Program-made: the position numbers and the translations under genes
DNA from: Candidatus Kapaibacterium sp.
Lineage (GTDB): Bacteria; Patescibacteriota; Patescibacteriia; UBA9934
DNA length: 64,000 nt
Direction: 5' to 3'
Assembly: GCA_044350705.1 (NCBI GenBank)
Contig: JBILHA010000002.1
Coordinates: 178,295-242,294, forward strand
Shown here: one piece after another, positions 6,448-26,651 of the stretch
Numbering within the stretch: position 1 is the stretch's first letter
How the letters are laid out: each line of letters starts with the position of its first letter
The notes under the pieces: generated by a model
Seen by the model: the letters and a program-made list of their open reading frames with translations, nothing else
Databases searched by the model: none
What the model was told of the DNA's origin: nothing

Positions 6448-7299
6448 TTATACGATGGTAAGAGAAAGAATAAGAATTGCAAGTGCGGCGAGAATTTTCT
6501 TACTATTCACCCTCTCTTTCAGCACGATCGCGCTTATAAGCAATACGAAGATTGGCGTGATGTTTCCGAGTGTTATTGCAACACCCGTACTTCCCAGGGT
6601 GAGTGCATAATAAAGAAGAATCCATTGTGCAATAACGAACAGTCCGCGTAAAAATATAAAGCGATATGTTTTTGTATCTAGCTCTTTTGGTGAATTTTTA
6701 AAGAAACATGCTGCGAATAATCCGATTAATGCCGCACGAAGCATGTATAACGTAGGCGCGTTTGTTGCCTCCATTCCACTTAAGAGATACTTACTTGGAA
6801 TTGCCGACGCGCCAAATAATACTGCGGAGATTACCGCCGGGTAGAGCGTTGCACTTTTAAACTGCTCGAGATTTTTCCAGTCTATCGATATAGCTATCAT
6901 CGATGCGATGATTACGATTGCTGTAAGCGTGCTCTGCATTGATGGATACTCTCCAAGCACAATAGCGGCAAATCCCAGTGTCGCCATAGGTGCTAGGGAA
7001 AGGATCGGAACCGCGACACTCGCTTCGGTTTTTTCAAAAGTTTTGAAGTAAAAATAATTTGCAACGCTATCGATGAGTGCAATGAGTCCGACGAGCGCAA
7101 TGCTCTTCCATGAAAAGATAAATTTATAAAAAAATGGCGAGATTGCTAACAACGTTGCGGCCATGATAAGAAAATTTGTTGCAAGAATTTTCTTTGCAGG
7201 GATGTCTTTCAACAGCACGCGCGCCAGAATACTCGCGACTGCGGCGAGCAATGCGGACAATATGGGAATTGCGGTAGAAATAGCGATCATATTCCTCAA
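6448..7299 (-). CDS. DMT superfamily transporter (EamA/RhaT-like), 10 TM
   Basis: 283 aa with a duplicated 5-TM EamA-like arrangement and hydrophobic throughout. Confidence 0.75.
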   Translation of the reverse strand: MRNMIAISTAIPILSALLAAVASILARVLLKDIPAKKILATNFLIMAATLLAISPFFYKFIFSWKSIALVGLIALIDSVANYFYFKTFEKTEASVAVPILSLAPMATLGFAAIVLGEYPSMQSTLTAIVIIASMIAISIDWKNLEQFKSATLYPAVISAVLFGASAIPSKYLLSGMEATNAPTLYMLRAALIGLFAACFFKNSPKELDTKTYRFIFLRGLFVIAQWILLYYALTLGSTGVAITLGNITPIFVLLISAIVLKERVNSKKILAALAILILSLTIV

Positions 7300-7380: not shown

Positions 7381-7929
7381 GTGAAATACTTTCTTTCGTT
7401 TTCTTATCTTTTCTATGCAAAAAATAAACTCCCTTCCGCATGGTACGCCGTTTTCTCAATGGCACTGATCACCTTCATAGGCGCTGGATGCACCACTTCT
7501 GGCAATGTTGAGGTCTCCACCGAAACCAACAACGAAGGAGCCGCTGATGTCGCTTCCAACGCTAACGCATCAGAAAATACCGGAACCCCTGCAACGAACA
7601 GCGATTCTACCCCTACCTCCAAAGATGAGAACGGCTATGCAGATGGAACCTATTCTGCAACCGGTACGTATACCTCCCCTGGAGGCAAGGAGGAACTTCC
7701 TGTTACCCTCACCCTTGAAAACGGCGTCATCGTTGAAGTCTCCATTGAAACGCCTGCCACCAATCCCGCTTCAAAGCGTTGGCAAATGGTTTTTTCAGAA
7801 AATTTCAAACCTCTCGTCGTGGGAAAATCCCTTGCTGATGTGCAACTTGATGCCGTTTCCGGATCATCGCTCACGCCCAAAGGATTCAACGATGCCATCT
7901 CCCAAATAAAAGCACAAGCAAGTTCTTAG
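7381..7929 (+). CDS. Secreted/lipid-anchored FMN-binding domain protein (PplA/RnfG/NqrC-like FMN_bind domain)
   Basis: It has an N-terminal signal/anchor ending ...ITFIGAGC with a GTG start. The C-terminal domain carries ...VDAVSGSSLT..., the flavinylation-site motif (DxxSG[A/S][T/S]) of FMN_bind domains. Confidence 0.7.
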   Translation: MKYFLSFSYLFYAKNKLPSAWYAVFSMALITFIGAGCTTSGNVEVSTETNNEGAADVASNANASENTGTPATNSDSTPTSKDENGYADGTYSATGTYTSPGGKEELPVTLTLENGVIVEVSIETPATNPASKRWQMVFSENFKPLVVGKSLADVQLDAVSGSSLTPKGFNDAISQIKAQASS

Positions 7930-7935
7930 TTCCGT

Positions 7936-8811
7936 ATGGCTTCCCAGCCGTGGATTTTTGATGCGATCGGGACGCGCTGGCAGATCGACATTCCTGACAT
8001 GTACCCGAAGAGCCTCCAAGAAGAGGCTCTTCGTGTTATCCATGAACGCATCGAGATCTACGACAAAGATTATTCTCGTTTTCGCGAGGACTCCTTCGTG
8101 ACGCGTATGTCACGAGAAGGCGGCACTTATACCCTTCCTTCGGACGCCAAACCTCTTTTTGATTTGTATCACGATCTCTATCGCATGACCGGAGGAGCAT
8201 TTACTCCTCTTATCGGAAGGACACTTGTTGAAGCAGGGTACGATGCAAACTATTCTCTTCAACCGGGAGCTCTCACTGCTCCGCCCTCGTGGGAAGAGGC
8301 GCTTTCTTACGCCTTCCCTCGTCTCACTCTTCACACACCTACTCTGCTCGATGTAGGCGCTGGAGGAAAGGGCTATCTTGTCGATATTATTGGCGATCTT
8401 TTAACGAAAAAAGGGATTGCTTCATTTTGCATAAATGCGGGAGGCGATATTCTCTACCGCCATCCTTCACAGAGCTTACGCGTTGGACTGGAGAATCCTC
8501 TCAATGTCCAAGAAGTTTTAGGAATCGTCGAGCTAGAACGAGGAAGTATTTGCGGATCTGCAGGCAATCGTCGCTTGTGGGCGAATTTCCATCACACCAT
8601 TGATCCACGCACCCTTTCATCGCCTTCCCATATTCTGGCTACGTGGGTCGTTGCGGACAACGCCCTTCTCGCTGACGCGCTTTCCACCTGTCTCTTTCTT
8701 ACACCGGCCAGCAGCCTTCATGAAGCCTACGAATTCTCGCATTGTATGCTTTATCCTGATATGACCATCGATACCTCACCCGACTTTCCTGCCGAATTTT
8801 TTACTTCTTAG
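7936..8811 (+). CDS. apbE: FAD:protein FMN transferase (ApbE/Ftp family)
   Basis: 291 aa with TGGAFTP, GAGGKGYLVD and CGSAGNRR motifs characteristic of ApbE. Confidence 0.85.
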   Translation: MASQPWIFDAIGTRWQIDIPDMYPKSLQEEALRVIHERIEIYDKDYSRFREDSFVTRMSREGGTYTLPSDAKPLFDLYHDLYRMTGGAFTPLIGRTLVEAGYDANYSLQPGALTAPPSWEEALSYAFPRLTLHTPTLLDVGAGGKGYLVDIIGDLLTKKGIASFCINAGGDILYRHPSQSLRVGLENPLNVQEVLGIVELERGSICGSAGNRRLWANFHHTIDPRTLSSPSHILATWVVADNALLADALSTCLFLTPASSLHEAYEFSHCMLYPDMTIDTSPDFPAEFFTS

Positions 8812-8814
8812 CCT

Positions 8815-10338
8815 ATGCTCTCTTTTATTGATCGCTTCATCAACGGCATTACCATGTACCGCCTCACGCTTTGGGGACTTTCTCTGCTTGCAGCTCTTTC
8901 AATTCTCTTTGGATTTTTTGGACTTATTTCTTACGATGGATTCCATCTCCTTCTCTCCCTCTTTCTTCTTCTCATTACCTGCTGGATTTCAAATACACTC
9001 TTTGTTCGTCTTTTTAATGCCGCGCCTAGCGTCGAATCCTCCCCCATTACTGCGCTCATTCTTTTCTTTCTCATCATGCCTGTTGCATCGGTGAAAGAAG
9101 CGCTCATTTTAGTGCTCACTGGCATTGTTGCGATGGCATCAAAATATCTTCTTGCTATTCGCGGACGGCACCTGTTTAATCCTGCCGCAATTGGGGCATT
9201 TTTTTCAGGATTTATTTTAGGAAACGGGGCTATTTGGTGGGTAGGAAGCAGCATCTTCCTTCCCTTTGTTGCCGTAGTCGGTCTTCTCATGGTGAGAAAA
9301 ATTCATCGAGGGACGCTCTTTCTTTCGGGAGTTTTCGCTGCCGTTGTTACCCTCCTTGTCGTCAATCTTCTTCAAGAAACGATCGCCTTTACTCTCGTCG
9401 ATCTCAGCTCCTTCATCACGCTCGTTTTCACCTCCTGGCCTCTTGTTTTCTTTGCGTCGGTCATGCTCACGGAACCTACCACCACTCCTTCTACCCGCAA
9501 GAGACAGATCATCTATGGAATCCTTACCGGCATTCTCTTTGGTCTTCCTTTCTCTTTCGGACGTCTCTCCATGTCTCCTGAGCTTGCGCTTCTTTTGGGA
9601 AATATTTATTCCTCCTTCGCAGAAGCAAAGTCTCGCGTAAAAGCGAAACTTCTCCAGAGAACACTTGTCGCAAAGGATACCTACCATCTTACCTTTTCTC
9701 TTCCCCGCCCTCTTACTTTTATCCCAGGCCAATATCTCGAATGGACACTTTTTCATAATAAATCGGACAACCGGGGAACCCGTCGTTACTTTACTATCGC
9801 TTCTTCGCCTACCGAACCCTCTCTAGGACTCGGGGTAAAAATGGGAGGAAAGATGAGTACTTTTAAACAGAAGCTCTTTACTCTTCAGGAAGGGGAAGAA
9901 ATTACCGTCTCTCAGCTTTCTGGAGATTTTGTCCTTCCTCGGGATTCTTCGGAGAAACTCGTTTTTATCGCAGGAGGAATTGGCATTACTCCCTTTAGGA
10001 GCATGGTGCAATGGCTCATTGATACACAGTCTTCTCGAGACATCGTTCTTATCTATGCCTGCAACACCCCGGAAGACTTCGCCTACCTTGATGTATTTAT
10101 GCGCGCTCAATCATGCGGAGTACGGCTTGTCCTTCTTGCGAAAGAAGCACCCGTAGGATGGCAAGGACAACGGGGATATCTCACGATCGAAATGCTGCAA
10201 AAAGAAGTTCCCGACTCTACCGTCCGTCATTTCTATATCTCTGGACCCGGCGGCATGGTCACTGCGTATAAAAAGCTTCTCAGAAAACATGGTATTTCTC
10301 TTTCACGTATTACTACCGATTATTTCCCGGGTCTTTAA
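8815..10338 (+). CDS. Membrane flavoprotein oxidoreductase fusion
   Basis: The N-terminal polytopic domain has an RGRHLFNPAA signature, inferred to be RnfD/NqrB-like. The C-terminal domain is ferredoxin-NADP+ reductase-type FAD/NAD(P)H-binding, with the FAD motif RRYFTIASSP and the NAD motif GGIGITPFRSM. Confidence 0.65.
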   Translation: MLSFIDRFINGITMYRLTLWGLSLLAALSILFGFFGLISYDGFHLLLSLFLLLITCWISNTLFVRLFNAAPSVESSPITALILFFLIMPVASVKEALILVLTGIVAMASKYLLAIRGRHLFNPAAIGAFFSGFILGNGAIWWVGSSIFLPFVAVVGLLMVRKIHRGTLFLSGVFAAVVTLLVVNLLQETIAFTLVDLSSFITLVFTSWPLVFFASVMLTEPTTTPSTRKRQIIYGILTGILFGLPFSFGRLSMSPELALLLGNIYSSFAEAKSRVKAKLLQRTLVAKDTYHLTFSLPRPLTFIPGQYLEWTLFHNKSDNRGTRRYFTIASSPTEPSLGLGVKMGGKMSTFKQKLFTLQEGEEITVSQLSGDFVLPRDSSEKLVFIAGGIGITPFRSMVQWLIDTQSSRDIVLIYACNTPEDFAYLDVFMRAQSCGVRLVLLAKEAPVGWQGQRGYLTIEMLQKEVPDSTVRHFYISGPGGMVTAYKKLLRKHGISLSRITTDYFPGL

Positions 10339-11067: not shown

Positions 11068-11144
11068 GCGCTCGTAGCTCAGTTGGATAGAGCATCAGCT
11101 TGCGGAGCTGAGGGTCGCACGTTCGAGTCGTGCCGAGCGCACCA
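11068..11144 (+). tRNA. tRNA-Arg (anticodon read as GCG), 77 nt, CCA encoded
   Basis: Acceptor GCGCTCG/CGAGCGC, D-arm GCTCAGTTGGATAGAGC (Arg-like), anticodon stem TCAGC/GCTGA with loop TTGCGGA, T-arm GCACGTTCGAGTCGTGC, and a 3' ACCA. Confidence 0.85.
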
Positions 11145-11177: not shown

Positions 11178-11996
11178 TTATCTTTTTCTTATGAGCGCCG
11201 TCACTCCAAACAGGAGAAGAGATACGAGCACGATGGTCGCTCCCGTGGGAGTATCCACAAGCGCCGATGCAAAGAGCCCTCCGATCACCGCGGTCACTCC
11301 ATACCCTACCCCTATCCCCATGGTGTGCCAGAACCCCTTTCTCCACATATTTGCCGCGAGTACCGGTATTACCAGCAACGCGCTCACCAAGAGCGCTCCT
11401 ACGACTCGCATGCCCACTGCAACAACCAGCGCAGAGAGCATGATAAACAGCGCCTCGTATCGCTCAATAGGGAGCCCTTGCACTTTCGCTAAACGTGCGT
11501 CAGCGGTTGCAAGAAAGAATATCCCTCTCCCGACATACAGTACGCTTCCCACCACTCCAAGCACTGCCCCGATTGAGCACACATCGCCCCACGTTACGGT
11601 CGTGATGCTTCCAAACAAATAGGAGAGTACCTGGGCATTCCAGGAACCGGTTACGCTTAATAGCACCACGGCAAATGCTAAGCTTCCTGAAAGGACCAAT
11701 GCAAGCGCAGCATCTCCTGAGAGTTTCGCATGTCTTCTGAGCCATTCCATTCCTATCGCGGCTCCTAGTGTTGCCGCCATCGCCGCCCAAACGCTTTGGA
11801 TGCCCAGCACCACTCCGAGCGCCACCCCCGCAAGCGAGGCGTGCGCTAACGTATCTGAGAAAAATGCTTGGCGACGTGCGACAAAAAATATCCCAATGAG
11901 AGGTGCGAGTATTCCCATCATAATTCCCGCAAGCAATGCTCGCTGAAAAAAGGCGTATCCAAAGAGTTCAATAAGCATACTAGTGATGATGGGCAT
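11178..11996 (-). CDS. znuB: Metal (Zn/Mn) ABC transporter permease (ABC-3 / ZnuB family)
   Basis: 272 aa, 8-9 TM, with the ABC-3 signature region and clustering with znuC/znuA. Confidence 0.85.
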   Translation of the reverse strand: MPIITSMLIELFGYAFFQRALLAGIMMGILAPLIGIFFVARRQAFFSDTLAHASLAGVALGVVLGIQSVWAAMAATLGAAIGMEWLRRHAKLSGDAALALVLSGSLAFAVVLLSVTGSWNAQVLSYLFGSITTVTWGDVCSIGAVLGVVGSVLYVGRGIFFLATADARLAKVQGLPIERYEALFIMLSALVVAVGMRVVGALLVSALLVIPVLAANMWRKGFWHTMGIGVGYGVTAVIGGLFASALVDTPTGATIVLVSLLLFGVTALIRKR

Positions 11997-13254
11997 GTCC
12001 TTCTTCTTCTACCCGGATAATTCCTTTGCCGTATGCCCATGCGGCAAGTGCGGTCGCCACTGGCACTGCGAGCATAAGCGCAGATCCACCAATGAGTGCA
12101 CGGAGCATTTCTTCGGTCAGCGACTCCCCGTTGAGTAAAACCCACAGTGGCGGGTTATCCGGGAGCGAGAAGAGCAGGAAAAGAGGAAATGACGCTCCTA
12201 CATATGCGAGTGCGAGCGTGTTTACGAGAGCTGCAATATGCTCTCGTCCAACTACCAGCCCTCGTACATACAACTCCTTTACGTCGAGTGAGTGATTTGC
12301 GCGATAGATCTGTTCTACTGCTGCAACTTGTGCGGTCGTAACGTCGTCCAAAACACCCAGCGCACCAATCACCAAGCCTCCGAGGAGGAGTCCGCGTAGA
12401 TCAAGCGATTGTAAATACCCCATCTGCAAGAAGAGCGCCTCTTCCGTACTTGCTCCCGAAAGCATCGCCCAAAAAACCGTTGCATATGCCAATCCAAACG
12501 CGAGGAGCAGCACAAACATGGTGGCAGAAAATGCGAGGAGTGTTCTCTTTTTTAATCCGTGTGCCAAAAACAATGATGTCGTCGCGATTGCAATAGCCCC
12601 CAGCGCGCTAATCACGATGGGATTGTCCCCTGCCATGATACGGGGCGCGATAAATGCTACAAGTACAATAAGCGATACTCCAAGGCCCACCAGTGACATT
12701 ACTCCTCTCCACTTGCCAAGTACTACGGCGAGTCCTCCAAAGACCAATGCCAACGCAATGACCACAGGAAGCCGGAATTGATCGAGAATATAGTACGCCG
12801 TCCCACGAGCATCGGTGGTTTGCACGAGCACGACCGGATCTCCTTTTTCGAGACGCACCTGTGCAAATCCGATCGTTGAGGAACGATACTCGATCGTCTC
12901 TACCTCTCCCGCTTCTTCTCCTGAGGCAATCTTTACTAAGACGAGCTGATAGCTTTCCTCGAGACCGCCGAGGTTATTTTTTCCTTCCTCAACAATACTT
13001 ATCACCTCTCCGAGCACATACTTGTTTGGAATATATTCTCCTACCGGATGGCTCACCATCATCTCGCCGTCTTCTGCAGGCACAAGTTCCGCCTCTTGCG
13101 CAAAAACGACTTGTATCCCTGAAAAAGATAAGACGCAAAGTATCAGCGAAACAAGCAGTGGGCGGAGAAGCAACCGGACCGATGAGAACAGAAAAACACC
13201 GAAATACCAATGTGCCTTCTTAATGCATGTGAGGATGATCCGCATAGGAGCCAT
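11980..13254 (-). CDS. YibE/F-family integral membrane protein with a C-terminal His tail, embedded in the znu operon
   Basis: YibE/F-like TM core (…GALGVLDDVTTAQ…); N-terminal signal plus an extracytoplasmic domain. The C-terminus is ...EEEGHAHHH. Confidence 0.65.
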   Translation of the reverse strand: MAPMRIILTCIKKAHWYFGVFLFSSVRLLLRPLLVSLILCVLSFSGIQVVFAQEAELVPAEDGEMMVSHPVGEYIPNKYVLGEVISIVEEGKNNLGGLEESYQLVLVKIASGEEAGEVETIEYRSSTIGFAQVRLEKGDPVVLVQTTDARGTAYYILDQFRLPVVIALALVFGGLAVVLGKWRGVMSLVGLGVSLIVLVAFIAPRIMAGDNPIVISALGAIAIATTSLFLAHGLKKRTLLAFSATMFVLLLAFGLAYATVFWAMLSGASTEEALFLQMGYLQSLDLRGLLLGGLVIGALGVLDDVTTAQVAAVEQIYRANHSLDVKELYVRGLVVGREHIAALVNTLALAYVGASFPLFLLFSLPDNPPLWVLLNGESLTEEMLRALIGGSALMLAVPVATALAAWAYGKGIIRVEEEGHAHHH

Positions 13255-13921
13255 GACTTACGATTCTCTTATTAAGACAGAGCACACGCGTTGCTTCGCG
13301 CTCAACTGCGTGAAGGTCATGAGAGACCATAAGAATAGTCATATGCGTACGCCGGTGCAATTCACGCAGTACATCGTAGAGCGTCTGCTGTTGGTACTCA
13401 TCTACTGCGGACATCGGTTCATCAAGAACGAGTATACGTGGCTCTCCCGCTAATGCTCGTGCGAGAAAAGCTCGCTGGCGTTCTCCTCCGGAAATCTCTC
13501 CGATTCTTCTTTTCGCAAGGTGGGATATACCGCACGTTTCCATCGCCTTTTCAATACGCACCACATCATGCGCTCGTGGGCCTTGATACCACTTTCTCAA
13601 TGCCACCCGTCCACTTGCAACCATTTCCTCCACGGTTGCGGGAAAAAGTGGATCAAAAGACGCCGCATGCTGAGGGACATATCCCACTTGATGGCGCAAT
13701 TCTCTCCCTTCCCACTCAATCTTTCCCGCCGTTTGGCGCTCAAGACCGAGGAGGATATTCAAGAGCGTCGTCTTTCCTCCCCCATTTGGACCAATAATTC
13801 CTACATACTCTCCTTCTTTGATCGAAAAAGAAACATCTTCAAGAACGACGAAATCACCCCGCGTAAATTGCACGTGGGAAACCGTGAGTAATTCGTGTGA
13901 CCGCTTCGCTACGGTTGACAT
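13220..13921 (-). CDS. znuC: Metal ABC transporter ATP-binding protein (ZnuC-like)
   Basis: Walker A GPNGGGKTT, ABC signature LSGGERQR and Walker B ILVLDEP. Confidence 0.85.
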   Translation of the reverse strand: MSTVAKRSHELLTVSHVQFTRGDFVVLEDVSFSIKEGEYVGIIGPNGGGKTTLLNILLGLERQTAGKIEWEGRELRHQVGYVPQHAASFDPLFPATVEEMVASGRVALRKWYQGPRAHDVVRIEKAMETCGISHLAKRRIGEISGGERQRAFLARALAGEPRILVLDEPMSAVDEYQQQTLYDVLRELHRRTHMTILMVSHDLHAVEREATRVLCLNKRIVSHGSYADHPHMH

Positions 13922-14886
13922 GAGAGTGCTTGCGCAAGTGCGTGAAGATTCTTTCGCATAATGGAAGTATACCCTTCTCCTGCGGCAATTTGCTCTTCCG
14001 TACGGCCTTCAAGGGTGTACAACACATCTACCGATGCGCCAATTTCCTGGGCGATTGTTTCTGCCAGCGCCGTACTTGCGGGAGACTCGAAGAATACCGT
14101 CGTCACTCCTAATTCCTTTGCTTCTTCAATGAGTTTTGCCATATTTTTGACCGATGGTTCCGCCTCGGGAGAAATTCCTGCCACGGCATGTATCGCGATG
14201 TTGTACCGAAGTTCCCAATACCGGAATGCGTCATGCGCCACCAAAACATTGCTTTGTTCGCACGTACGCAATGTTTCAGAAAAATCCGCATCTAATGCCG
14301 CGAGCTCCTCTCGCAGCTTTTGCATTTCATGCGCATACCGCTCGGCATGTGCAGGATCTTTCTCGATGAGCGCTTCGGCGATCGCGCGCACCATTTCTTG
14401 TGCTCGCGCACTATCAAGCCAGGCGTGGGGATCTTGCGCGCCTTCATGCCCGTGCCCGTGCTCTTCTTCCTCCTCTTCATGCCCCTCTTCTTCATGTCCC
14501 TCCTCTTCTCCTGCCAGAAAGGGTACAACGTCGCTCATGCGCACCACTTTTATTCCCGCAGCTTCTGCATCGGGAAGGAGATTTTCTGCCCACGCGTCTA
14601 AACCTCCGCCATTGAGGAGCACCACGTCAGCACTTAAAAAATGTGCGATATCCTGGGGAGATGGCTCATATTCATGCACCTCAACTCCATCAGGCGTTAT
14701 TTGTCGTACCGATACATATTCTTCGCCTATTTCTTGAGCAAAGTCCGCCAAAGGGAAAAACGTTGCCACTACTTCGATCTGGTTCTTTGGGGTATTCCCT
14801 CTTTCACCCCTTCCCAAATACCATCCTCCTGCAAGCAGTGCGCTCACAAGTAGCAGGCCCCCTATTCCATACATCCATTTTTGCAT
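13909..14886 (-). CDS. znuA: Metal ABC transporter substrate-binding protein (ZnuA-like) with a His/Glu-rich loop
   Basis: Cluster-9 SBP fold motifs and the acidic His-rich insert EEEGHEEEGHEEEEEEHGHGHEG typical of zinc-specific ZnuA. The start is taken at MQKWMYGIGGLLLVSA (signal/anchor). Confidence 0.8.
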   Translation of the reverse strand: MQKWMYGIGGLLLVSALLAGGWYLGRGERGNTPKNQIEVVATFFPLADFAQEIGEEYVSVRQITPDGVEVHEYEPSPQDIAHFLSADVVLLNGGGLDAWAENLLPDAEAAGIKVVRMSDVVPFLAGEEEGHEEEGHEEEEEEHGHGHEGAQDPHAWLDSARAQEMVRAIAEALIEKDPAHAERYAHEMQKLREELAALDADFSETLRTCEQSNVLVAHDAFRYWELRYNIAIHAVAGISPEAEPSVKNMAKLIEEAKELGVTTVFFESPASTALAETIAQEIGASVDVLYTLEGRTEEQIAAGEGYTSIMRKNLHALAQALSCQP

Positions 14887-14902
14887 ATTTTTTGCAAAAA
14901 TA

Positions 14903-15556
14903 TCATGCATCGTTTCCATATGCAAGGGTGCATGCGTATACCCGGGAAACCCCCGCTTGTCTGAGAACGTCCGCACACGCTACGAGCGTACTTCCGGTCG
15001 TTGCAACATCATCTACGAGACAGACGCTCTTTGGCACCTTGTCTTGCGGCCTTAACACACTCATGTAGGGATTCTTCTCACGCACCTCTCCCCGATCCTC
15101 TTTTTTTGTTTTTGCCTGCGCCTTTTTTGGTACTCGTTTTAATCCCTCCACGACACTCCATCCTCCTTTTGTCGCGATGCTTTGGGCGAGCATCTCTGCC
15201 TGATTAAATCCACGCTCTGCATACGCTTCTCTTGCCAGGGGAACGGGGATCAGGACTGTTTCTTTATCAAGAAAAAACATCTCTCCCTCTTGCATCCACT
15301 TTTGCCACCATTTTCCCGCCTCTTCATCGCCGCGATATTTCCACGCATGGAGCATTTTTTGTACCGCCGGCTCTTGATAAGAAACTCGTGAGAATATTTC
15401 TACCCCTTCGCATACCTTCTCACGATGCCAAGGAGGGAGCGTCACATTCTTTGCGCACCTTTGACAGAGAATCTCTCCTTCTTTCTTACAAACCACACAC
15501 GCCCTTGGAAAAAGGGCGTCCATGAGGAGGTGATAGATGGCTTTTAGTCTTGCCAT
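14903..15556 (-). CDS. comFC: ComF-family protein (ComFC; phosphoribosyltransferase-like competence protein)
   Basis: N-terminal 4-Cys zinc finger CVVCKK...CQRCAK and a C-terminal PRTase motif LVDDVATTGSTL. Confidence 0.75.
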   Translation of the reverse strand: MARLKAIYHLLMDALFPRACVVCKKEGEILCQRCAKNVTLPPWHREKVCEGVEIFSRVSYQEPAVQKMLHAWKYRGDEEAGKWWQKWMQEGEMFFLDKETVLIPVPLAREAYAERGFNQAEMLAQSIATKGGWSVVEGLKRVPKKAQAKTKKEDRGEVREKNPYMSVLRPQDKVPKSVCLVDDVATTGSTLVACADVLRQAGVSRVYACTLAYGNDA

Positions 15557-16125: not shown

Positions 16126-18048
16126 TTATGCTTGTTTTTGCTGCTCCGCGAGTGCGCGCTGATATTCTTCTCGCGCACGTTCCTGCTGCAGGATTTGCTC
16201 TGGATTTGTCGTCACAATTTGATCTTCCGTATATGACGCTACCACTTTAATCGCCGCATGCTTCTGTCCGGCGAAAAAGATCCCCTCCCCTACTGCTGCT
16301 TCGAGCAGAAGATACTTCTCACTTTGCGTGAGGTTAAACGTTCGCGCAACCAGATCCACGGCCGCAGGAGATTGTTTCAACAACATCTGGAGAGAAGAGT
16401 TGGTCACAATTGCTTGGCCGTATTGCGAAGTAAGGAAGTCGTTTACATCTTGCGTGATCGTCGTCACACCCAGGTAGTATTTTCGCGCGCGTTTTACGAG
16501 GGCAAAAATGAACTTTGCCGAATCTTCGTTTTGCATGAGCCACCACGCTTCATCAATCACCAACAAACGCTTTTTACGCTCCGAACGTACGACGTTCCAG
16601 ATGTAGTTTACGATGGTATAAATCGCCATGGGACGCAATTCATCTTCGAGGTCGCGTACGGAGAATACGACGAGCTGATTGCGCATTTGTACGGTTGTGG
16701 GAGAGTTCAGCAATCCCGAGAATGTTCCTGACACGTATTTCTGAATACGCGCAACAAGATTCTCCGCCCCCTGCATTCCCTCAAGGATTTGCATGAGGTC
16801 ATCAAGAATAGGATACGCTGCCACTCCTGCAAGCGAAGGAAGGTCAGGAGTAATATCTTTCTTTGCATACGCCTCCAAAAGTGCGCGATCGAGTACGCTA
16901 TCTTCTTCAGGGGTAAAGCCAAGCGTTCCCTTTTCTCCCATGGGCTTCCCGATCATGATGCGAAGCAGTCCCTTGAGCGTAATCACCGCGCTACGCAAGA
17001 TATCGTCTACCGAACTCTCTTCCCCCTTAGGGCGAGGAAGATCAAAAGGATTGATTTTTGCTTCAGACGCCAAGGAAACGTTTACGAATGTTCCGCCTAC
17101 GGCATCGGATAGCTGGCGATATTCCATTTCGGGGTCAATAACAATAACGTCCGTTCCCATCATGAGCGAACGGAGAATTTCGAGCTTTACCGTATAGCTT
17201 TTTCCCGCACCTGATGTTGCAAAGACGACCGAGTTTGCATTCTGCAGAGAAAAACGATCGAATAAAATGAGCGAGTTGTTGTGCCGATTAATTCCGTACA
17301 GGATGCCGTTATCGCTCGATACATCTGAGGAAATAAAGGGAAATGAAGATGCAATCGGTGACGTGTTCATGTTAAACGTAATCATGAGCTCGTCATTGCA
17401 TTCGGGAAGCGTGGAATTAAACCCTTGTTCTGATTGGTAGAATCCTCGCTTCGTGTAAATGAGTTTCGTGCCGAAAATTGCTTCGATTTCTTCAGTGCGT
17501 TTATCTAAATCCTCCTGATTTTTTCCGTATACGGTAACGTAGAAAGCAAACTGGAAAAAGTGCTCGATTCCTTGTGTCAGATCATCACGAAGTTGCTCAA
17601 TATCGCGCAGTGCGGTTTCCTGGATAGGATCACGAGGCTTTCCACTTTCATGATCCGCAACAATTTGCGCTTCGGTAATACCCACTTTGTCACGCAACTG
17701 TTTTAAAATGATTTCTGGTCGGATCGGATAAAAATACATGCCAATATCGATCGTCCCTTTGTAATTGATAATCGGCGCTCCCCATCCTATTCCTACGTAG
17801 CGAGGATAGGTGGTCACAAAAAGCGTACGCAAATACTGATCTCCAAGACGGAGGAAGTTTGGCTGCACTTCAAACGCTGCCGGCGCAATCAGGTCACGGA
17901 TGGATACGGTTCCCCGGCGATAGACACGCTCTTCTTCAAGCGTTGCGCGCTCTTCAGCTAACTTCTGCTCTTGAGGGGACAGTTTCTTTGGAGCAACTGC
18001 AATCTTCTGTGCCTGCTGCCTTTTGAGGTCTTCAATATTAAATGCCAT
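16126..18048 (-). CDS. VirB4/TraC/PrgJ-family T4SS ATPase, C-terminal ATPase portion (split gene)
   Basis: Walker A ATSGAGKSYT, VirB4-type Walker B LLVIDEAWWLM, and RKYYLGVTTITQ (the motif following Walker B). Confidence 0.85.
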   Translation of the reverse strand: MAFNIEDLKRQQAQKIAVAPKKLSPQEQKLAEERATLEEERVYRRGTVSIRDLIAPAAFEVQPNFLRLGDQYLRTLFVTTYPRYVGIGWGAPIINYKGTIDIGMYFYPIRPEIILKQLRDKVGITEAQIVADHESGKPRDPIQETALRDIEQLRDDLTQGIEHFFQFAFYVTVYGKNQEDLDKRTEEIEAIFGTKLIYTKRGFYQSEQGFNSTLPECNDELMITFNMNTSPIASSFPFISSDVSSDNGILYGINRHNNSLILFDRFSLQNANSVVFATSGAGKSYTVKLEILRSLMMGTDVIVIDPEMEYRQLSDAVGGTFVNVSLASEAKINPFDLPRPKGEESSVDDILRSAVITLKGLLRIMIGKPMGEKGTLGFTPEEDSVLDRALLEAYAKKDITPDLPSLAGVAAYPILDDLMQILEGMQGAENLVARIQKYVSGTFSGLLNSPTTVQMRNQLVVFSVRDLEDELRPMAIYTIVNYIWNVVRSERKKRLLVIDEAWWLMQNEDSAKFIFALVKRARKYYLGVTTITQDVNDFLTSQYGQAIVTNSSLQMLLKQSPAAVDLVARTFNLTQSEKYLLLEAAVGEGIFFAGQKHAAIKVVASYTEDQIVTTNPEQILQQERAREEYQRALAEQQKQA

Positions 18049-18757: not shown

Positions 18758-19213
18758 TTATACCTGAGGGGGAAGTTCATCGTCGCCCTTGTAGACACCG
18801 CCGGTATTTACGATGAGCGTGAGCTCCGAAAGACGGGAGGATTCAAGGGGTGCTTTTCTTAGTTTTTCAGGCGGCTTTTCTTCCTCCACCTTTTTTAAAT
18901 ACACGCGAAGATCCGTATCAGAGAGCGTTTTATCCCACACTCTTTTTGCGGGCTTTTTAATATACTGCAGGAGGTTGAGCACGATATAGTGCAGTGGCTG
19001 GCCATTTACTTTTCCAAAAGCAAACGCTCCTCCGAGTGCGGCGATCGGGATACCAACCGCGAGCATGGGAAGCAGGCTCAAGAAAATGCGGTAGACTAAA
19101 AACTCTGCCACGATTACCCCTACCATGATGAGAAATTGGCGAAGCGTAATCGGGCCAATGATTTTTGGCTCTACATCAAGAAATTGCGGAACGACAAACT
19201 GGGATCGCGACAT
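18758..19213 (-). CDS. PrgI-like (VirB3-like) small membrane protein
   Basis: 151 aa with the N-terminal motif ...VPQFLDVEPKIIGPITLRQF... followed by two TM helices. It lies immediately upstream of VirB4, as in Gram-positive T4SS loci. Confidence 0.5.
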   Translation of the reverse strand: MSRSQFVVPQFLDVEPKIIGPITLRQFLIMVGVIVAEFLVYRIFLSLLPMLAVGIPIAALGGAFAFGKVNGQPLHYIVLNLLQYIKKPAKRVWDKTLSDTDLRVYLKKVEEEKPPEKLRKAPLESSRLSELTLIVNTGGVYKGDDELPPQV

Positions 19214-23867: not shown

Positions 23868-24096
23868 AAATCCTTTGTGTCATTCCGACGACAGGAGGAA
23901 TCTCTTCCCTTTCATTCATTTACACTTCCCATGTTTGAAAGTAAGGGTTCTTCAACGCAATAAGCGCATATTTCTTTTGTCTTCTCCATTTCTTTAATTC
24001 TTTTTCTCGAGCAATGGCAGCGTGTACATTTGCGGTTGATTCAAAGTAGGGAATTTTTTATGAATGGATCTGAAGGAGATCGCTCCTACCGTCGGG

Positions 24097-24182
24097 ATGA
24101 CACCGGATCTCTTTCGGACTTTTGTATAAGATCCAACAATGACACCGGTTCTCTCTTCCACTTTTTTTGTACAAGACCCAAC
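24097..24182. repeat. Tandem imperfect direct repeat (2 x ~42-44 bp)
   Basis: ATGACACCGGATCTCTTTCGGACTTTTGTATAAGATCCAACA / ATGACACCGGTTCTCTCTTCCACTTTTTTTGTACAAGACCCAAC at about 80% identity. It sits in the 400-bp intergenic region upstream of the T4SS operon. Confidence 0.55.
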
Positions 24183-24215
24183 GTCGTCACTTCTCCCTGT
24201 GAGATACGCAAGACG

Positions 24216-24242
24216 CCTGGGAGAGCAGAACGCTCTCCCAGG
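24216..24242. terminator. Strong hairpin (11-bp perfect stem) downstream of the M23 peptidase gene
   Basis: CCTGGGAGAGC-AGAAC-GCTCTCCCAGG; weak flanking U-tract. Confidence 0.45.
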
Positions 24243-24273
24243 CGCACGATTCTTCTCTTTCGGACAAGAAGAA

Positions 24274-26022
24274 TTATTCCTCGATCACGACCCGCAGTCC
24301 GCAGCCACTTGACGTGGGATCATCGGCGGCGACCACCGACTGCGCATGTCCGTTCCAGGTTGCAGCTACCGTTCCCTGGATGGTTCCGGGCGGAAACGGC
24401 CCCAGGCAGGACCAGCTTGTCGTACCAGAGATGACGTACTCCACCGAAAAGCGGAGTGCGTCGCCCGGTTCCATGACGCGACGGTAGGTGAGGTGGGAGG
24501 TATCTGACCCCTCCGCAAGCACCCCCACCCAGCTCCGCGGATCACCACCCGCGGGGGTGAACTCCCCCGAGAGGGTGATGCGGCTTGCCGTCGCCGCATC
24601 TGGCGTTGTCCAGGTGAGCACGAGCTCCCTCTCTTCCTCGATGTCGGTCTCCGCCGGTGCTTCTTCTTCCTCTTCCCGCGTTTCTTCTTCCTCAGGCGGA
24701 TCACCCGCGCTCTCGTAGGCTCCTCCCCCAACCGCAGCACCGCCGCAGGTGGTGATCAGAGACTCGGTGAGGCAGGAGATGCCCGTCGCACAGCTCCCGC
24801 GCACGGTCACGATGCTCTCGAACTCGCTCCGCTCCACTTCGAGCACCGTTCTTTCCCAGAACCCCATGAGCAGATAGACGCTCCACGTCTCGATGGGCAT
24901 CGCAACACCATCGCTCATGAGGTACACGTCGCTTGCATCGGCCGGAGAGATGAGGCTTCCATCGCGGTAGCGCGCGTTGCCGCTGTGCACCGGATAGTCG
25001 CCAAGATCGTCGGAGAGATCGGACGCCTGGAGCAGGTCATCGTACGTCGCGGCGCTCATGCCCCACGACTTCACAACCCCCTGCCAGCCGAGCGTACCGA
25101 TCTTCTGTCTCGCACGATACTCATCGCCGCGCGTTCCCATGAGAAGCCACACGCCGGTTCCGCCTTCGTCGTCGTACACCGCGCGCACTGCGGACGCATC
25201 TCTCAGGCTCTCGCCTTCTTCGAAGCAGGAAAGCTCCTCGGGGGAGACGAGCGCAACATGCGCGAAGTCGTAATTGCGGGAGGTGAAGGCGCTCTCGGTC
25301 ACGAACACGCGCCTCTTCCCTTCTTCGATGAGGTACACCGCGCTCTCGAAGGGCGTCTTCACGAGCGTGCCGTTCGGGTGCCAGCGCGGCACAGGAAGGG
25401 ACGACTCGTACCGATGACCGGACGTGAGATCGCAGATCATGCTCGTTACCGGCGTTGCCTGTGCCGGCGTTCCCCGCGTGGCATTGCGCGCGAAGAACTC
25501 GAGCCCCTCCTGCGAGATTCCCTGGACGCCGTCGTCCGCTGCATCTCCCCAGTGACGGCCGATATGCAGATGGTCTCCCGTGGAGTTCCCCGTCGTCCCT
25601 TCGATTGCGATGATCTGGCCCGCCACCACTTCGCTCCCATCCTCCACAAAGATGTCGGACAGGTGCGCGAGGATGATATAGGTACCGTCACCGAGATCGA
25701 TGTTGATGTGCAGACCGAAGTTCGTCGTCGAATTGCGGTCGTGCACGTACGCCACGCCCGCGACCGGCGCGTACACCAGATCGTCGGCGTCGTTGGGGGT
25801 GTCGAAGTCCACGTCGTAGCGCGTTGCGGTTCCCCGGTGGGAGTAGCTCCCTCCGGTCCCCTGGCTGCAGCGGTAGCTCTCCCCTTCGGCGAAGGGCAGA
25901 TGAACCGTCACCGCGTCACGCCCTCCCCCGCCGATTCCGGTGTCTTCAGGAATGCTCAGCGGCGGCAGCGGCGAACAGCTACAGAAAAAAAGTACGAGGA
26001 GCGCACAAATAATGAAGGTCAT
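24274..26022 (-). CDS. Secreted/lipoprotein M23-family metallopeptidase with a large C-terminal domain; high-GC gene
   Basis: Signal MTFIICALLVLFFCSCS. The M23 motifs are HRGTATRYDVDF and GNSTGDHLHIG (G-x-STG-x-HLH). An acidic linker PPEEEETREEEEEAP is present. GC is about 65% versus about 45% in flanking genes. Confidence 0.75.
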   Translation of the reverse strand: MTFIICALLVLFFCSCSPLPPLSIPEDTGIGGGGRDAVTVHLPFAEGESYRCSQGTGGSYSHRGTATRYDVDFDTPNDADDLVYAPVAGVAYVHDRNSTTNFGLHINIDLGDGTYIILAHLSDIFVEDGSEVVAGQIIAIEGTTGNSTGDHLHIGRHWGDAADDGVQGISQEGLEFFARNATRGTPAQATPVTSMICDLTSGHRYESSLPVPRWHPNGTLVKTPFESAVYLIEEGKRRVFVTESAFTSRNYDFAHVALVSPEELSCFEEGESLRDASAVRAVYDDEGGTGVWLLMGTRGDEYRARQKIGTLGWQGVVKSWGMSAATYDDLLQASDLSDDLGDYPVHSGNARYRDGSLISPADASDVYLMSDGVAMPIETWSVYLLMGFWERTVLEVERSEFESIVTVRGSCATGISCLTESLITTCGGAAVGGGAYESAGDPPEEEETREEEEEAPAETDIEEERELVLTWTTPDAATASRITLSGEFTPAGGDPRSWVGVLAEGSDTSHLTYRRVMEPGDALRFSVEYVISGTTSWSCLGPFPPGTIQGTVAATWNGHAQSVVAADDPTSSGCGLRVVIEE

Positions 26023-26651
26023 GGGCCGACGTCTCCGGAGATGAAACGATGATTCGTTTCTTTTCCCCTTGCAGAGGGAGTCCCAAAGGAACTGCAAGGG
26101 AAACCGGAGCGCAGCATATGCCCTGGGGTAAGGACTCCCCTCCTTACCCCTTTATTTATTAAGTATGGAATGCTGTTTGCCCGGCTGTCGTTTTGAAAGC
26201 GCGTTTTTTGGTACCCGCTTTCAGGGCGATCAGGCGCGCGTTTGTCATTCCTGCAGACACTCACGAACGTTCCTTCAAGGTCGTGCCCGAACTCGTCGGT
26301 CGTTCTGCTTCCATATCACCATAAAAAAAGAAGTCTTCAAGTAAAAACCTTTAAAAACTCTTCTCTTTTTTGCGCGTTTTCGTTTCTGGTATCTTTTTTT
26401 CTTTTCATTGTCAGAAAACAATGAACAGCTTTTTCGCAAAACATCTCTTTGAAGCGATGCGTTGTCCCCTCTCCAAAAACACCGTGGGAAAAGCTGTCAG
26501 GAGTGCAAAAACTGTGGATAACCTACAAAAAACACGCCCCTTGCAATGGGCGTGTTTCCTCTCTCTTGAAGCTCGCGTATACGCCCCTCCTGGCCTCCCC
26601 GATGGGGAGGATCTCGGTGGAAACTCCCCTGACTCACCCGAGACGCTTTCA

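Follow-up and report, generated by a model that had tools for sequence, protein, structure and literature searches.

The closest described relative of the locus reported here is the NQR/RNF-like system, described by Méheust et al. (2021 eLife, PMC8238504) and Huang et al. (2024 mSystems, PMC11334425). As set out in the sections of PMC8238504 that treat it, the system is defined by an N-terminal PF03116 domain and a C-terminal PF00175 domain in one protein, with an ApbE and/or FMN_bind gene within five genes, forming a flavinylation-associated cluster. The published count is 127 clusters, and the same sections name Actinobacteria and the candidate phyla radiation (CPR) as the main sources of the system. 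The corresponding part of PMC11334425 reports that the NqrB-like domain lacks a flavinylated Thr. Where they discuss electron flow, the published model has electrons leaving NAD(P)H and moving one way, towards an extracytosolic flavin, and an AlphaFold-multimer model puts the tethered flavin at the vacant NqrB-like pocket. In the better-known Rnf and Na+-NQR complexes, the RnfD/NqrB subunits hold a periplasmic-side FMN about 8 Å from a cytoplasmic-side riboflavin, and the riboflavin passes electrons on to a cytoplasmic partner (review PMC12174285).

The three-gene locus described below has an architecture identical to that of the NQR/RNF-like system, and nothing essential differs. Its fusion protein carries both PF03116 and PF00175, the fusion gene directly follows those for FMN_bind and ApbE, and, by alignment with Escherichia coli RsxD, the flavinylated Thr is missing, as Huang et al. 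describe. Because this architecture was already published in 2021 and 2024, the locus is a new example and not a new invention. An earlier note on this DNA had taken the Listeria PplA/FmnB or Treponema Ftp systems as comparators, which overstated their closeness; it had also called the cassette unexpected in a minimal organism, which goes too far since most reports of the system concern Actinobacteria and CPR. The logic that it proposed, with NAD(P)H as the electron source and an extracytoplasmic flavoprotein as the recipient, agrees with the published model as those two papers present it.

A three-gene cassette and its family

The window, meaning the whole 64-kb stretch of DNA that was analysed, comes from a Patescibacteria bacterium near Uhrbacteria. 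Three co-oriented open reading frames (ORFs) occupy positions 7381–10338 of its + strand, and the ORF list bears out the coordinates and the 3–6 nt spacing given beforehand. Gene 1 (7381..7929, 182 aa, GTG start, TAG stop) encodes an FMN_bind protein, gene 2 (7936..8811, 291 aa, TAG stop) an ApbE, and gene 3 (8815..10338, 507 aa, TAA stop) a fusion of an RnfD/NqrB-like membrane domain with a ferredoxin-NADP+ reductase (FNR)-type domain; the gaps are 6 nt between genes 1 and 2 and 3 nt between genes 2 and 3. Pfam and NCBIfam matches cover all domains of the cassette. Each domain named in the earlier note was found by Pfam, and the motifs that it quoted (DAVSGSSLT, LFNPAA, RYFTIASSP and GGIGITPFRS) were all located in the translations.

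We found more than 100 full-length homologues of the fusion at 45–71% identity, and the family comprises 328 to 714 representatives at 50% identity. The order FMN_bind, ApbE, fusion was kept in about 40 of 46 full-length loci, these being GTDB loci from four or more phyla (CPR, Chloroflexota, Alphaproteobacteria, Spirochaetota), and neighbouring genes in them are a few nt apart or overlap by 4 nt. More than 100 homologues, together with a gene order repeated in some 40 independent loci, mean that the ORFs are not there by chance, and 7381–10338 is a genuine three-gene operon. The cassette probably moves electrons from intracellular NAD(P)H to a flavin protein tethered outside. It splits into two subfamilies named for the flavinylation motif: SGAT, the majority type, which includes the modelled Ktedonobacter type and has an ApbE of about 246 aa, and SGSS, the less common type to which the window belongs, with an ApbE of about 290 aa.

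A fusion of RnfD/NqrB-like and FNR-type domains

The N-terminal part of the fusion (residues 1–272; 8815..9630, + strand) has the RnfD/NqrB fold, as judged by profile comparison and structure prediction. It matches NQR2_RnfD_RnfE (PF03116) over residues 147–267 with 32.3 bits (cut-off 27.7), and hhalign relates it to E. coli RsxD with 90.6% probability in a collinear alignment, the ES..ITAL, SKY, FNPA and LTEPxTxP motifs being common to both; the LFNPAA sequence lies at residues 120–125. In a Foldseek search of the PDB with an AF2 model of residues 1–272 (pLDDT 95.9), the best 15 matches were all RnfD/NqrB chains, at probability 1.00, query-normalised TM-scores of 0.57–0.74 and E values of 1e-5 to 2e-3, and urea, Rh and Amt transporters ranked after them as weaker fold matches. 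The RnfD/NqrB likeness that the earlier note had proposed for this domain is thus borne out by Pfam, hhalign, the RsxD alignment and Foldseek alike.

The alignment also shows what this domain has shed. The fusion has nothing that aligns with a loop of about 75 residues in RsxD, the one with GISQAT, and no [ST]G[AS][ST] motif occurs anywhere in it, indicating that the membrane domain is without the RnfD loop that bears the flavinylated Thr; Rnf and NQR have both the covalent-FMN loop and the Thr. Conserved positions in the membrane domain include no Cys and a single His (H119), which argues against Fe–S clusters or a bis-His haem and in favour of flavins. We regard the domain as a predicted flavin-based wire across the membrane. 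Polytopic membrane domains joined to cytoplasmic FNR-type dehydrogenases are also found in SpNOX, in ferric-reductase-domain (FRD) proteins and in PepSY-like/FNR fusions, and the logic is the same, electrons from NAD(P)H being moved across the membrane. The wire in those proteins is a bis-haem, whereas that of the window's fusion is of the RnfD/NqrB fold, lacks conserved histidines that could ligate haem and, unlike theirs, is predicted to end in a covalently flavinylated partner.

The C-terminal part (residues ~275–507; 9637..10338, + strand) is of FNR type, as the earlier note had it. It matches FAD_binding_6 with 22 bits (cut-off 21.1) and NAD_binding_1 (PF00175) over residues 384–486 with 58.9 bits. 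RYFTIASSP is found at residues 324–332 and GGIGITPFRS at 387–396, and the features of the FNR superfamily are present as R324-Y-F-T (the RxY[ST] FAD motif), G387GIGITP (the GGxGxxP NAD(P) motif) and a C-terminal DYF504PGL with its aromatic residue; the motifs that show little or no variation across the family are RRYFT(I)AS, GGIG(I/V)TP, SGP and, at the C-terminus, DYFPG(F/L). Matches in the PDB, by profile and by fold, are the FAD domain of NqrF, flavohaemoglobin, b5 reductase and the SpNOX dehydrogenase domain, with fold matches to NqrF, b5 reductase and flavohaemoglobin at E values of 1e-17 to 1e-14. The domain is most like the FAD/NADH domain of NqrF and is predicted to be cytoplasmic. The full-length model reached a pLDDT of 95.2 and a pTM of 0.91, which makes it a confident prediction of how the two domains pack; the AlphaFold modelling that the earlier note had proposed thus gave models at pLDDT 95–96.

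How far the likeness to Rnf and Na+-NQR extends bears on whether the cassette could be coupled to ions. Both complexes share with the window's fusion the RnfD/NqrB fold and its signature motifs, and in both a tethered subunit, RnfG or NqrC, carries ApbE-type covalent FMN, as is predicted for the window's partner protein. They are built of six subunits, however, and the window system of two. E. coli RsxA, B, C, E and G gave nothing better than E = 1 in tblastn against the 64-kb window, RsxD alone matching, onto the fusion, and genes of the RnfA/E, RnfB/C or NqrA/D/E type did not recur among the neighbours in other cassette loci. RnfC and NqrF have Fe–S clusters, whereas the FNR part of the window's fusion is without a 2Fe–2S ferredoxin domain. 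A minimal ion-coupled machine, in which the RnfD/NqrB-like domain keeps a cation pathway and either pumps Na+/H+ or lets a gradient drive the flow, would make the cassette a one-protein energy-converting module for CPR cells. RnfD/NqrB are related to Amt/urea channels and are among the ion routes proposed for Rnf/Nqr (PMC12174285), the Amt/urea transporters recur among the weaker fold matches noted above, and the membrane domain has invariant polar residues (E74, S75, T79, K110, N122, E220, N263). Yet RnfA/E (NqrD/E) and the 2Fe–2S switch, which stand at the heart of every current coupling model (PMC12174285), are absent from the window, and the membrane domain is a trimmed core without the ~75-aa loop. 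The electron path of Rnf/Nqr is moreover semicircular, and that of the window system, as modelled in the relevant sections of PMC8238504 and PMC11334425, would cross the membrane one way. Ion coupling is unlikely in the window system, and this particular version of it strikes us as very improbable.

A predicted flavinylated partner and an ApbE without an export signal

The gene 1 product matches Pfam FMN_bind (PF04205) with 24.6 bits (cut-off 22), and the family profile matches crystal structures of flavinylated domains, namely 8p2a (E 2.6e-20), 8p2b and 3o6u. A motif of the class Dxx[ST]G[AS][ST] lies near its C-terminus as D157-A-V-S-G-S-S163-L-T (residues 157–165; 7849..7875, + strand), in register with DAVSGAT in the solved structure 8p2a. 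The acceptor column holds Ser or Thr in 44/44 orthologues, Thr in the SGAT and Ser in the SGSS subfamily, and the FMN_bind domain and flavinylation motif assigned by the earlier note therefore stand. The protein is a predicted substrate for covalent flavinylation, with Ser163 (codon 7867–7869) as the predicted FMN-phosphoester acceptor. It is a compact, FMN-bind1-type subunit whose sequence profile gives no link to NqrC/RnfG: neither was detected in the PDB at E<1 with the cassette's FMN_bind profile, and hhalign against RsxG aligned the motif alone, at 5% probability. Given so weak a link, an 'NqrC-like' docking rests on the published multimer model.

The N-terminus of this protein has a hydrophobic signal/anchor segment (residues 17–36) followed by G-A-G-C37, a possible lipobox (7429..7491, + strand). 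Public gene calls differ on the start, GTG 7381 in one and ATG 7459 in another, and a charged n-region (K14, K16) precedes the hydrophobic stretch and Cys37 only in the longer form. Of the signal or lipid anchor claimed earlier, the hydrophobic segment and the cysteine hold up; the lipobox, I-G-A-G-C, is by inspection non-canonical at position –3, and the start is ambiguous. We consider it plausible from these features that the protein is signal-anchored or lipid-anchored. An acidic flank free of K/R follows the anchor and leads into a low-complexity acidic, Ser/Thr-rich linker that runs to about residue 88. All FMN_bind orthologues have an N-terminal anchor, with 69 D/E after it versus 11 before, and their linkers have a median length of 54 aa and are 74% P/T/S/A/G/Q/N.

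Gene 2 encodes an ApbE-family protein (Pfam ApbE PF02424, 130 bits, E 1e-37), as had been proposed. It aligns to the solved ApbEs 5mgy, 1vrm and 4xdt and keeps the catalytic motifs GGD (169–171), HHTIDP (219–224) and DALST (247–251), suggesting that it is an FAD:protein FMN transferase for which FMN transfer can be predicted. Like 40 other cassette ApbEs, it has neither a signal peptide nor a lipobox nor any TM segment, so that no lipoprotein or Sec signal places it outside the cytoplasm: its best 19-mer hydropathy is 1.43, the maximum over the 41 proteins is 1.67, and its N-terminus (MASQPWIFDAIG...) is already inside the catalytic domain, with no upstream extension of the ORF possible. Extracytoplasmic targets normally require an exported ApbE, cytoplasmic ApbEs being a known minority (review PMC12052999). 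The cassette ApbEs thus present a puzzle, as all are without an export signal and yet their substrate looks exported. The sections of PMC8238504 and PMC11334425 that describe the system make no comment on it. The earlier note likewise missed this one feature, which fits badly with purely extracytoplasmic flavinylation.

An ApbE lacking an export signal implies that flavinylation takes place before or during export, or that the topology is not as drawn. A cytoplasmic ApbE could attach FMN to the FMN_bind protein at its C-terminal motif ahead of translocation, in which case an extracytoplasmic supply of FAD would not be needed, or the FMN_bind domain could itself be a cytoplasmic relay, a swinging bridge between the FAD of the FNR domain and the nearer-cytoplasm flavin site of the RnfD-like domain. 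Under either version the cofactor chain would not be the one drawn in the literature, if only in the way it is assembled. All 41 of the 41 cassette ApbEs start within the catalytic domain, and there is a precedent for a cytoplasmic enzyme and substrate in the fumarate reductase of K. pneumoniae (PMC12052999), although in Salmonella the periplasmic ApbE could not be replaced by a cytoplasmically expressed one (PMC12052999). The distribution of K/R around the FMN_bind anchor is nearly balanced, with more before it in 18 orthologues, more after it in 17 and equal numbers in 10, which would suit this reading, and a relay would also supply the bridge from FAD to membrane flavin for which RnfC and NqrF have Fe–S clusters (PMC12174285) and the fusion has no Fe–S domain. 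On the other hand, spirochaete orthologues have classical cleavable signal peptides (e.g. ...GGAFA|AP), the K/R-free acidic flank in the window's protein and the long P/T/S-rich linkers are typical of exported tethers, and the multimer published in PMC11334425 is described there as placing the domain on the outer face with high confidence. Together these observations make a cytoplasmic ApbE or relay unlikely in our view, and we favour a tethered flavin that faces outward.

Proposed electron path and candidate acceptors

Our preferred reading, to which we give a probability of about 0.6, is that the locus is a member of the NQR/RNF-like system, in which two subunits form an electron conduit through the membrane and a third protein is dedicated to their maturation. 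NAD(P)H would be oxidised by the FAD of the cytoplasmic FNR-type domain, from which electrons would pass into the fused membrane domain. If the analogy to RnfD/NqrB holds, the membrane domain has two flavin sites, one near its cytoplasmic face for a non-covalent flavin, which in RnfD/NqrB is riboflavin, and a further pocket towards its outer face. The loss of the covalent-FMN loop and its Thr suggests that this outer pocket is served instead by the FMN that ApbE would put on Ser163 of the tethered FMN_bind protein. The tethered flavin would then reduce an extracytoplasmic acceptor, for which metal ions, host-cell quinones or flavins, and O2 are candidates.

Extracellular electron transfer in Listeria monocytogenes follows a similar logic, in that an FmnB-type ApbE flavinylates a tethered FMN_bind protein outside the cell, the last carrier of electrons from NADH. 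There the membrane is crossed by a type-II NADH dehydrogenase (Ndh2), demethylmenaquinone and EetA/B, whereas in the window one RnfD-like/FNR fusion would do so with no quinone step, and no Ndh2-type or EetA/B-type gene was found among the Pfam annotations of the cassette-flanking genes. Listeria FmnB is furthermore an exported lipoprotein, in contrast to the cassette ApbE, and PplA has two FMN_bind domains where the window's protein has one.

The flanks of the cassette, as annotated by Pfam, comprise an asparaginase, an EamA protein, an uncharacterised 177-aa membrane protein and a ZnuA/ABC/YibE_F/ABC-3 metal-uptake operon; the downstream ORF and the metal operon are outside the cassette unit. 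That this operon adjoins the cassette in the window and its closest relatives raises the possibility that the conduit, working as described above, reduces Fe(III), Cu(II) or a comparable ion outside the cell and so feeds or protects metal transporters, a supporting role proposed earlier for some flavinylation clusters. In 5 other loci a CopA-like P-type ATPase lies near the cassette (immediately before it in Uhrbacteria locus L017), two-component systems recur in 12–14 loci, and the portion of PMC8238504 on the NQR/RNF-like system reports VIT1 iron transporters in six of its clusters. The metal ABC operon is nevertheless convergent with the cassette and not co-transcribed, shared synteny is enough to account for its place beside the cassette in close relatives, and among the 46 full-length GTDB loci it is missing near the cassette in almost all, one ABC-3 and one YibE/F match being the exceptions. 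No electron-acceptor gene was conserved beside the cassette among the loci compared, and no single neighbour family was present in more than about a third of them. A metal-reductase role is for these reasons a tentative and rather doubtful addition to the preferred reading of a one-way conduit. If that conduit is real, its net effect would be the regeneration of NAD(P)+ or the reduction of extracellular substrates without a respiratory chain.

A three-gene cassette of a published flavinylation class

The earlier note had described three co-oriented open reading frames, and all three were found where it had placed them, on the + strand: ORF1, an FMN_bind protein of 182 aa (7381-7929, stop TAG); ORF2, an ApbE flavin transferase of 291 aa (7936-8811, stop TAG); and ORF3, a 507-aa fusion of a membrane domain with an FNR-type domain (8815-10338, stop TAA), with intergenic gaps of 6 nt and 3 nt. 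The motifs it had listed were likewise all present, namely the flavinylation motif DAVSGSSLT at residues 157-165 of ORF1 (7849-7875, + strand) and, in the fusion, LFNPAA (120-125), RYFTIASSP (324-332) and GGIGITPFRS (387-396). Pfam assigned ORF1 to FMN_bind (24.6 bits, cut-off 22), ORF2 to ApbE (130 bits), and ORF3 to NQR2_RnfD_RnfE in its N-terminal part (32.3 bits against a cut-off of 27.7, over residues 147-267 only) as well as to FAD_binding_6 and NAD_binding_1; NCBIfam was concordant, with matches to models for RnfD, NqrF and further members of the FNR family. Full-length homologues of the fusion number more than 100, with identities of 45-71%, indicating that the cassette ORFs are real genes, and identical copies of the protein occur on other contigs. 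All three ORFs lie in one frame, split by single stops (TAG, TAG). TGA recoding or stop-codon read-through, which would join the three genes, was rejected given that the stops are TAG, TAG and TAA. FMN_bind and ApbE share a frame in only 9/39 cassettes, which is below chance, and we therefore regard the window's single frame as coincidence rather than read-through.

Exactly this architecture defines the "NQR/RNF-like system" in the excerpted text of Méheust et al. (eLife 2021, PMC8238504). The interpretation of the cassette as an NAD(P)H-to-extracytoplasmic-flavoprotein conduit is thus supported, while the expectation that such a system would be out of place in a minimal organism is not upheld, as the class was already published. 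The locus is a new member, in the SGSS subfamily described below, of a class that the earlier note rediscovered, and since its architecture is already in the literature it leaves existing knowledge unchanged. A literature search found no experimental study of the NQR/RNF-like system. At the 50%-identity level, an exhaustive search with the membrane domain gave 328 representatives under a limit of E<=1e-30 and 714 under the looser E<=1e-10, most of the matches being fusions of ~500 aa. The family is thus larger than the published count suggests, with hundreds of 50%-identity clusters against the 127 gene clusters given in the excerpted survey text (PMC8238504), whose lower figure may reflect that survey's inclusion requirement.

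A scan of GTDB species representatives yielded 80 loci, in which ORFs were called and then searched iteratively with the window proteins. The order FMN_bind-ApbE-fusion was kept in about 40 of the 46 GTDB loci with a full-length fusion, and across loci the genes were separated by a few nucleotides or overlapped by 4 nt. Hosts included many lineages of the candidate phyla radiation (CPR), Ktedonobacteria and Anaerolineae, Mesorhizobium, Phyllobacterium and Methylocapsa, and Spirochaetota. In the majority subfamily the motif reads D-I-[IV]-S-G-A-T and ApbE is ~246 aa long; a minority (SGSS) subfamily, with the motif xxVSGSSLTP and an ApbE of ~290 aa, is found in the window and in L001, L002, L004, L008, L017, L024 and L054, with Uhrbacteria and Saccharibacteria among the labels, all remaining loci belonging to the majority.

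The earlier note had staked its reading on conservation of the flavinylated Ser/Thr, and when the window FMN_bind protein was aligned with 44 orthologues (n=45) the acceptor position was Ser or Thr in every one of the 44, and so in 45/45 proteins. In the protein from the window, the sequence predicts Ser163 as the acceptor. Searched against the PDB, the FMN_bind family profile matched 8p2a (E 2.6e-20), in which one FMN-binding domain of a multi-flavinylated protein was crystallised, and also 8p2b and 3o6u; NqrC and RnfG were not reached at E<1. This indicates that the FMN_bind subunit is a compact FMN-bind1-type domain, and "NqrC-like" describes its role, not close kinship.

The membrane domain of the fusion and the proposed electron path

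Because the Pfam match covered only residues 147-267, we put the RnfD/NqrB likeness of the fusion's N-terminal domain to four independent tests. When 22 such domains were combined in a profile, it matched E. coli RsxD with a probability of 90.6%, and RsxD, when added to the 22-domain alignment, was collinear across the whole domain, with the motifs ES..ITAL, (A)SKY, FNPA and LTEPxTxP in common. In this alignment a ~75-residue RsxD segment carrying the flavinylated threonine (GISQAT) had no counterpart in the fusion; an NqrB/RnfD-like domain without the conserved Thr is described in the excerpted text of Huang et al. (mSystems 2024, PMC11334425). A single-sequence search of the PDB with the membrane domain returned nothing at E<10. 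The AlphaFold model of the full-length fusion was confident (pLDDT 95.2, pTM 0.91), and its PDB matches fell mostly on the FNR half (the NqrF FAD domain, flavohaemoglobins, b5 reductase and the SpNOX dehydrogenase domain). As both the full-length profile and full-length Foldseek searches were swamped by such matches, the N-terminal domain was modelled alone (residues 1-272, pLDDT 95.9). The best 15 PDB matches of this model in Foldseek were all RnfD chains (A. woodii 9eri_D, A. vinelandii 8rbq_D and 8ahx_D, C. tetanomorphum 7zc6_D) or V. cholerae NqrB chains, with a probability of 1.00 and query-normalised TM-scores of 0.57-0.74; next came transporters of the urea, Rh and Amt types, whose distant kinship with RnfD/NqrB is known (PMC12174285). 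Pfam, the RsxD alignment and the model with its PDB folds hence agree with the RnfD/NqrB-like assignment on which the earlier note had also made its reading depend, and the fusion's membrane domain is a trimmed RnfD/NqrB core.

Wiring of this domain through Fe-S clusters or haem was considered and rejected: it has no conserved Cys and a single conserved His, which makes Fe-S clusters or bis-His haem unlikely. Judging from these residues, its cofactors are probably flavins. In RnfD/NqrB, ~8 Å separate a covalent FMN near the outer face from a riboflavin that lies closer to the cytoplasmic side, and this riboflavin exchanges electrons with the cytoplasmic partner RnfC or with ubiquinone (PMC12174285). 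For a Ktedonobacter racemifer pair, the excerpted text of Huang et al. reports an AlphaFold-multimer model in which the tethered flavin lies at the membrane subunit's empty flavin pocket (PMC11334425). The folds, motifs and gene linkage of the cassette are observed; we infer its cofactor content, direction of flow, topology and acceptor. By analogy with RnfD/NqrB, the most likely path would run in four steps, from NAD(P)H to FAD on the fused FNR domain, from FAD to a non-covalent flavin held by the membrane domain, from that flavin to FMN on Ser163 of the tethered FMN_bind protein, and from the tethered FMN to an external acceptor. The fused FNR domain would stand in place of the RnfC or NqrF of Rnf/Nqr, but without an Fe-S cluster. 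No other Rnf/Nqr subunit was found in the 64-kb window, which argues against a complete ion-pumping complex. Stand-alone FNR-like proteins of ~235 aa, matching the C-terminal half of the fusion only, occur in many genomes (loci L053-L080, labelled mostly Saccharibacteria, also Nitrospira, Acidobacteriota and Actinomycetes) with no adjoining FMN_bind or ApbE gene.

Neighbouring genes and the rest of the window

Directly 3' of the cassette is ORF4 (10345/10375-10908, + strand), an uncharacterised two-TM protein of 177 aa with no Pfam domain, which is 79-82% identical in close relatives, where the fusion is ~60% identical. A fourth cassette subunit was one candidate role for ORF4. This was rejected, as its more distant homologues lie in loci without the cassette and no homologue was found near a cassette in the 80 GTDB loci; the family comprises 62 clusters, from Patescibacteria only. 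In the cassette-free locus L087 the ORF4 homologue has a ComF-like gene on one side and RecG on the other, backbone genes that also border this region of the window; ORF4 hence belongs to the backbone, and the cassette has been inserted. A role as linked flavin transporter found no support for the divergent EamA transporter gene (6448-7299), since it accompanies the cassette in close relatives only and no homologue adjoins a cassette elsewhere. The convergent metal-uptake ABC operon (ZnuA, ABC ATPase, YibE/F and ABC-3 permease; 11178-14976, - strand) likewise accompanies the cassette only in close relatives and was discarded as a conserved partner, being a weak hint at most. Its YibE/F-family membrane protein gene lies between those for the ATPase and permease, an arrangement kept in the closest relatives, L084 and L085.

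Across cassette loci there was no universal neighbour or conserved acceptor gene. Recurring neighbours (in L003, L007, L013, L017, L026-L037, L046, L050 and others) were two-component systems of the OmpR type (12-14 loci), MacAB/HlyD-like exporters (7-10 CPR loci) and CopA-like P-type ATPases (five loci, directly upstream in Uhrbacteria L017), which weakly hint at a connection with metals or envelope stress. A small secreted protein of ~150 aa also recurs (five loci).

GroEL from the window shares 76-80% identity with proteins labelled Patescibacteria and Candidatus Uhrbacteria, and CPR-typical features include a monoderm-type type IV secretion set, a 3122-aa surface-type ORF and genes without known family; given these, the view of the organism as metabolically reduced is reasonable. 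The secretion set includes a TraG/VirB4-like P-loop ATPase (16126-18048, - strand) and a PrgI-family protein (18758-19213, - strand), and these type IV secretion genes also neighbour the ORF4 homologue in L087. The 3122-aa ORF (28440-37808, - strand) has CBM_4_9 (residues 666-765) as its sole recognisable domain and is probably a surface protein. A GC spike of 0.61 at 24001-26100, against ~0.49 window-wide, coincides with a 607-aa M23-peptidase protein whose C-terminal part is acidic and Gly-rich; this region may have been acquired horizontally. A tRNA-Arg (11068-11144, + strand), in the interval that separates the cassette region from the metal ABC operon, has the anticodon GCG, where ACG is usual in bacteria, and the other window tRNAs (Ala-GGC, Val-GAC, Leu-GAG) likewise have G at position 34.

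Flavin transferases without export signals

The window ApbE can be aligned with solved flavin transferases and keeps GGD, HHxxDP and DALST. Signal peptide, lipobox and TM segment were absent from 41/41 cassette ApbEs (the window and L001-L054, four or more phyla), all of which start within the catalytic domain itself (as in MKQTRILMGMPITVE...; MASQPWIFDAIG... in the window); no hydrophobic 19-mer in the 41 exceeded 1.67 on the Kyte-Doolittle scale, and the window ORF cannot be extended upstream. Their FMN_bind substrates each have an N-terminal anchor with an acidic flank behind it (69 D/E after the anchor against 11 before), followed by a linker with a median of 54 residues and 74% P/T/S/A/G/Q/N, and spirochaete members have classical cleavable signal peptides. 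By these sequence features, the substrates look exported. ApbEs for exported proteins are normally lipoproteins, a cytoplasmic ApbE version did not complement in Salmonella, and ApbEs without signal are known for cytoplasmic substrates (PMC12052999). The excerpted texts of Méheust et al. (PMC8238504) and Huang et al. (PMC11334425) do not comment on the signal-less ApbE of the cassette.

We consider three possibilities: flavinylation takes place before or during export, the FMN_bind domain lies elsewhere than drawn, or ApbE gets out of the cell along a route that has escaped recognition. The lack of an export signal in all 41 ApbEs may point to cytoplasmic maturation of the tethered flavoprotein; we nevertheless judge it unlikely, at present, that FMN is placed on the C-terminal motif before membrane crossing or that FMN_bind works at the cytoplasmic face. 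Tat export of a pre-flavinylated FMN_bind protein fails as a general explanation, as the n-regions in CPR, Chloroflexota and Mesorhizobium are MKK-type without twin arginines. One spirochaete orthologue has an "FRRT" n-region.

The system is of modest importance as one of very few candidate redox outlets of CPR bacteria, which are without respiratory chains, and its residual interest lies in the external acceptor, the role of the conduit in CPR physiology and the puzzle of ApbE localisation. A signal-less ApbE in every cassette poses a testable question, namely at which place and stage the covalent flavin is attached. Culturable carriers such as Mesorhizobium, Dictyobacter and Ktedonospora make it practical to test a system otherwise confined to uncultured CPR. 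If true, cytoplasmic maturation or a cytoplasmic-face domain would give ApbE-type covalent flavoproteins an assembly route or a topology that is new, and ultra-small cells that lack flavin synthesis or FAD export could make an external redox outlet.
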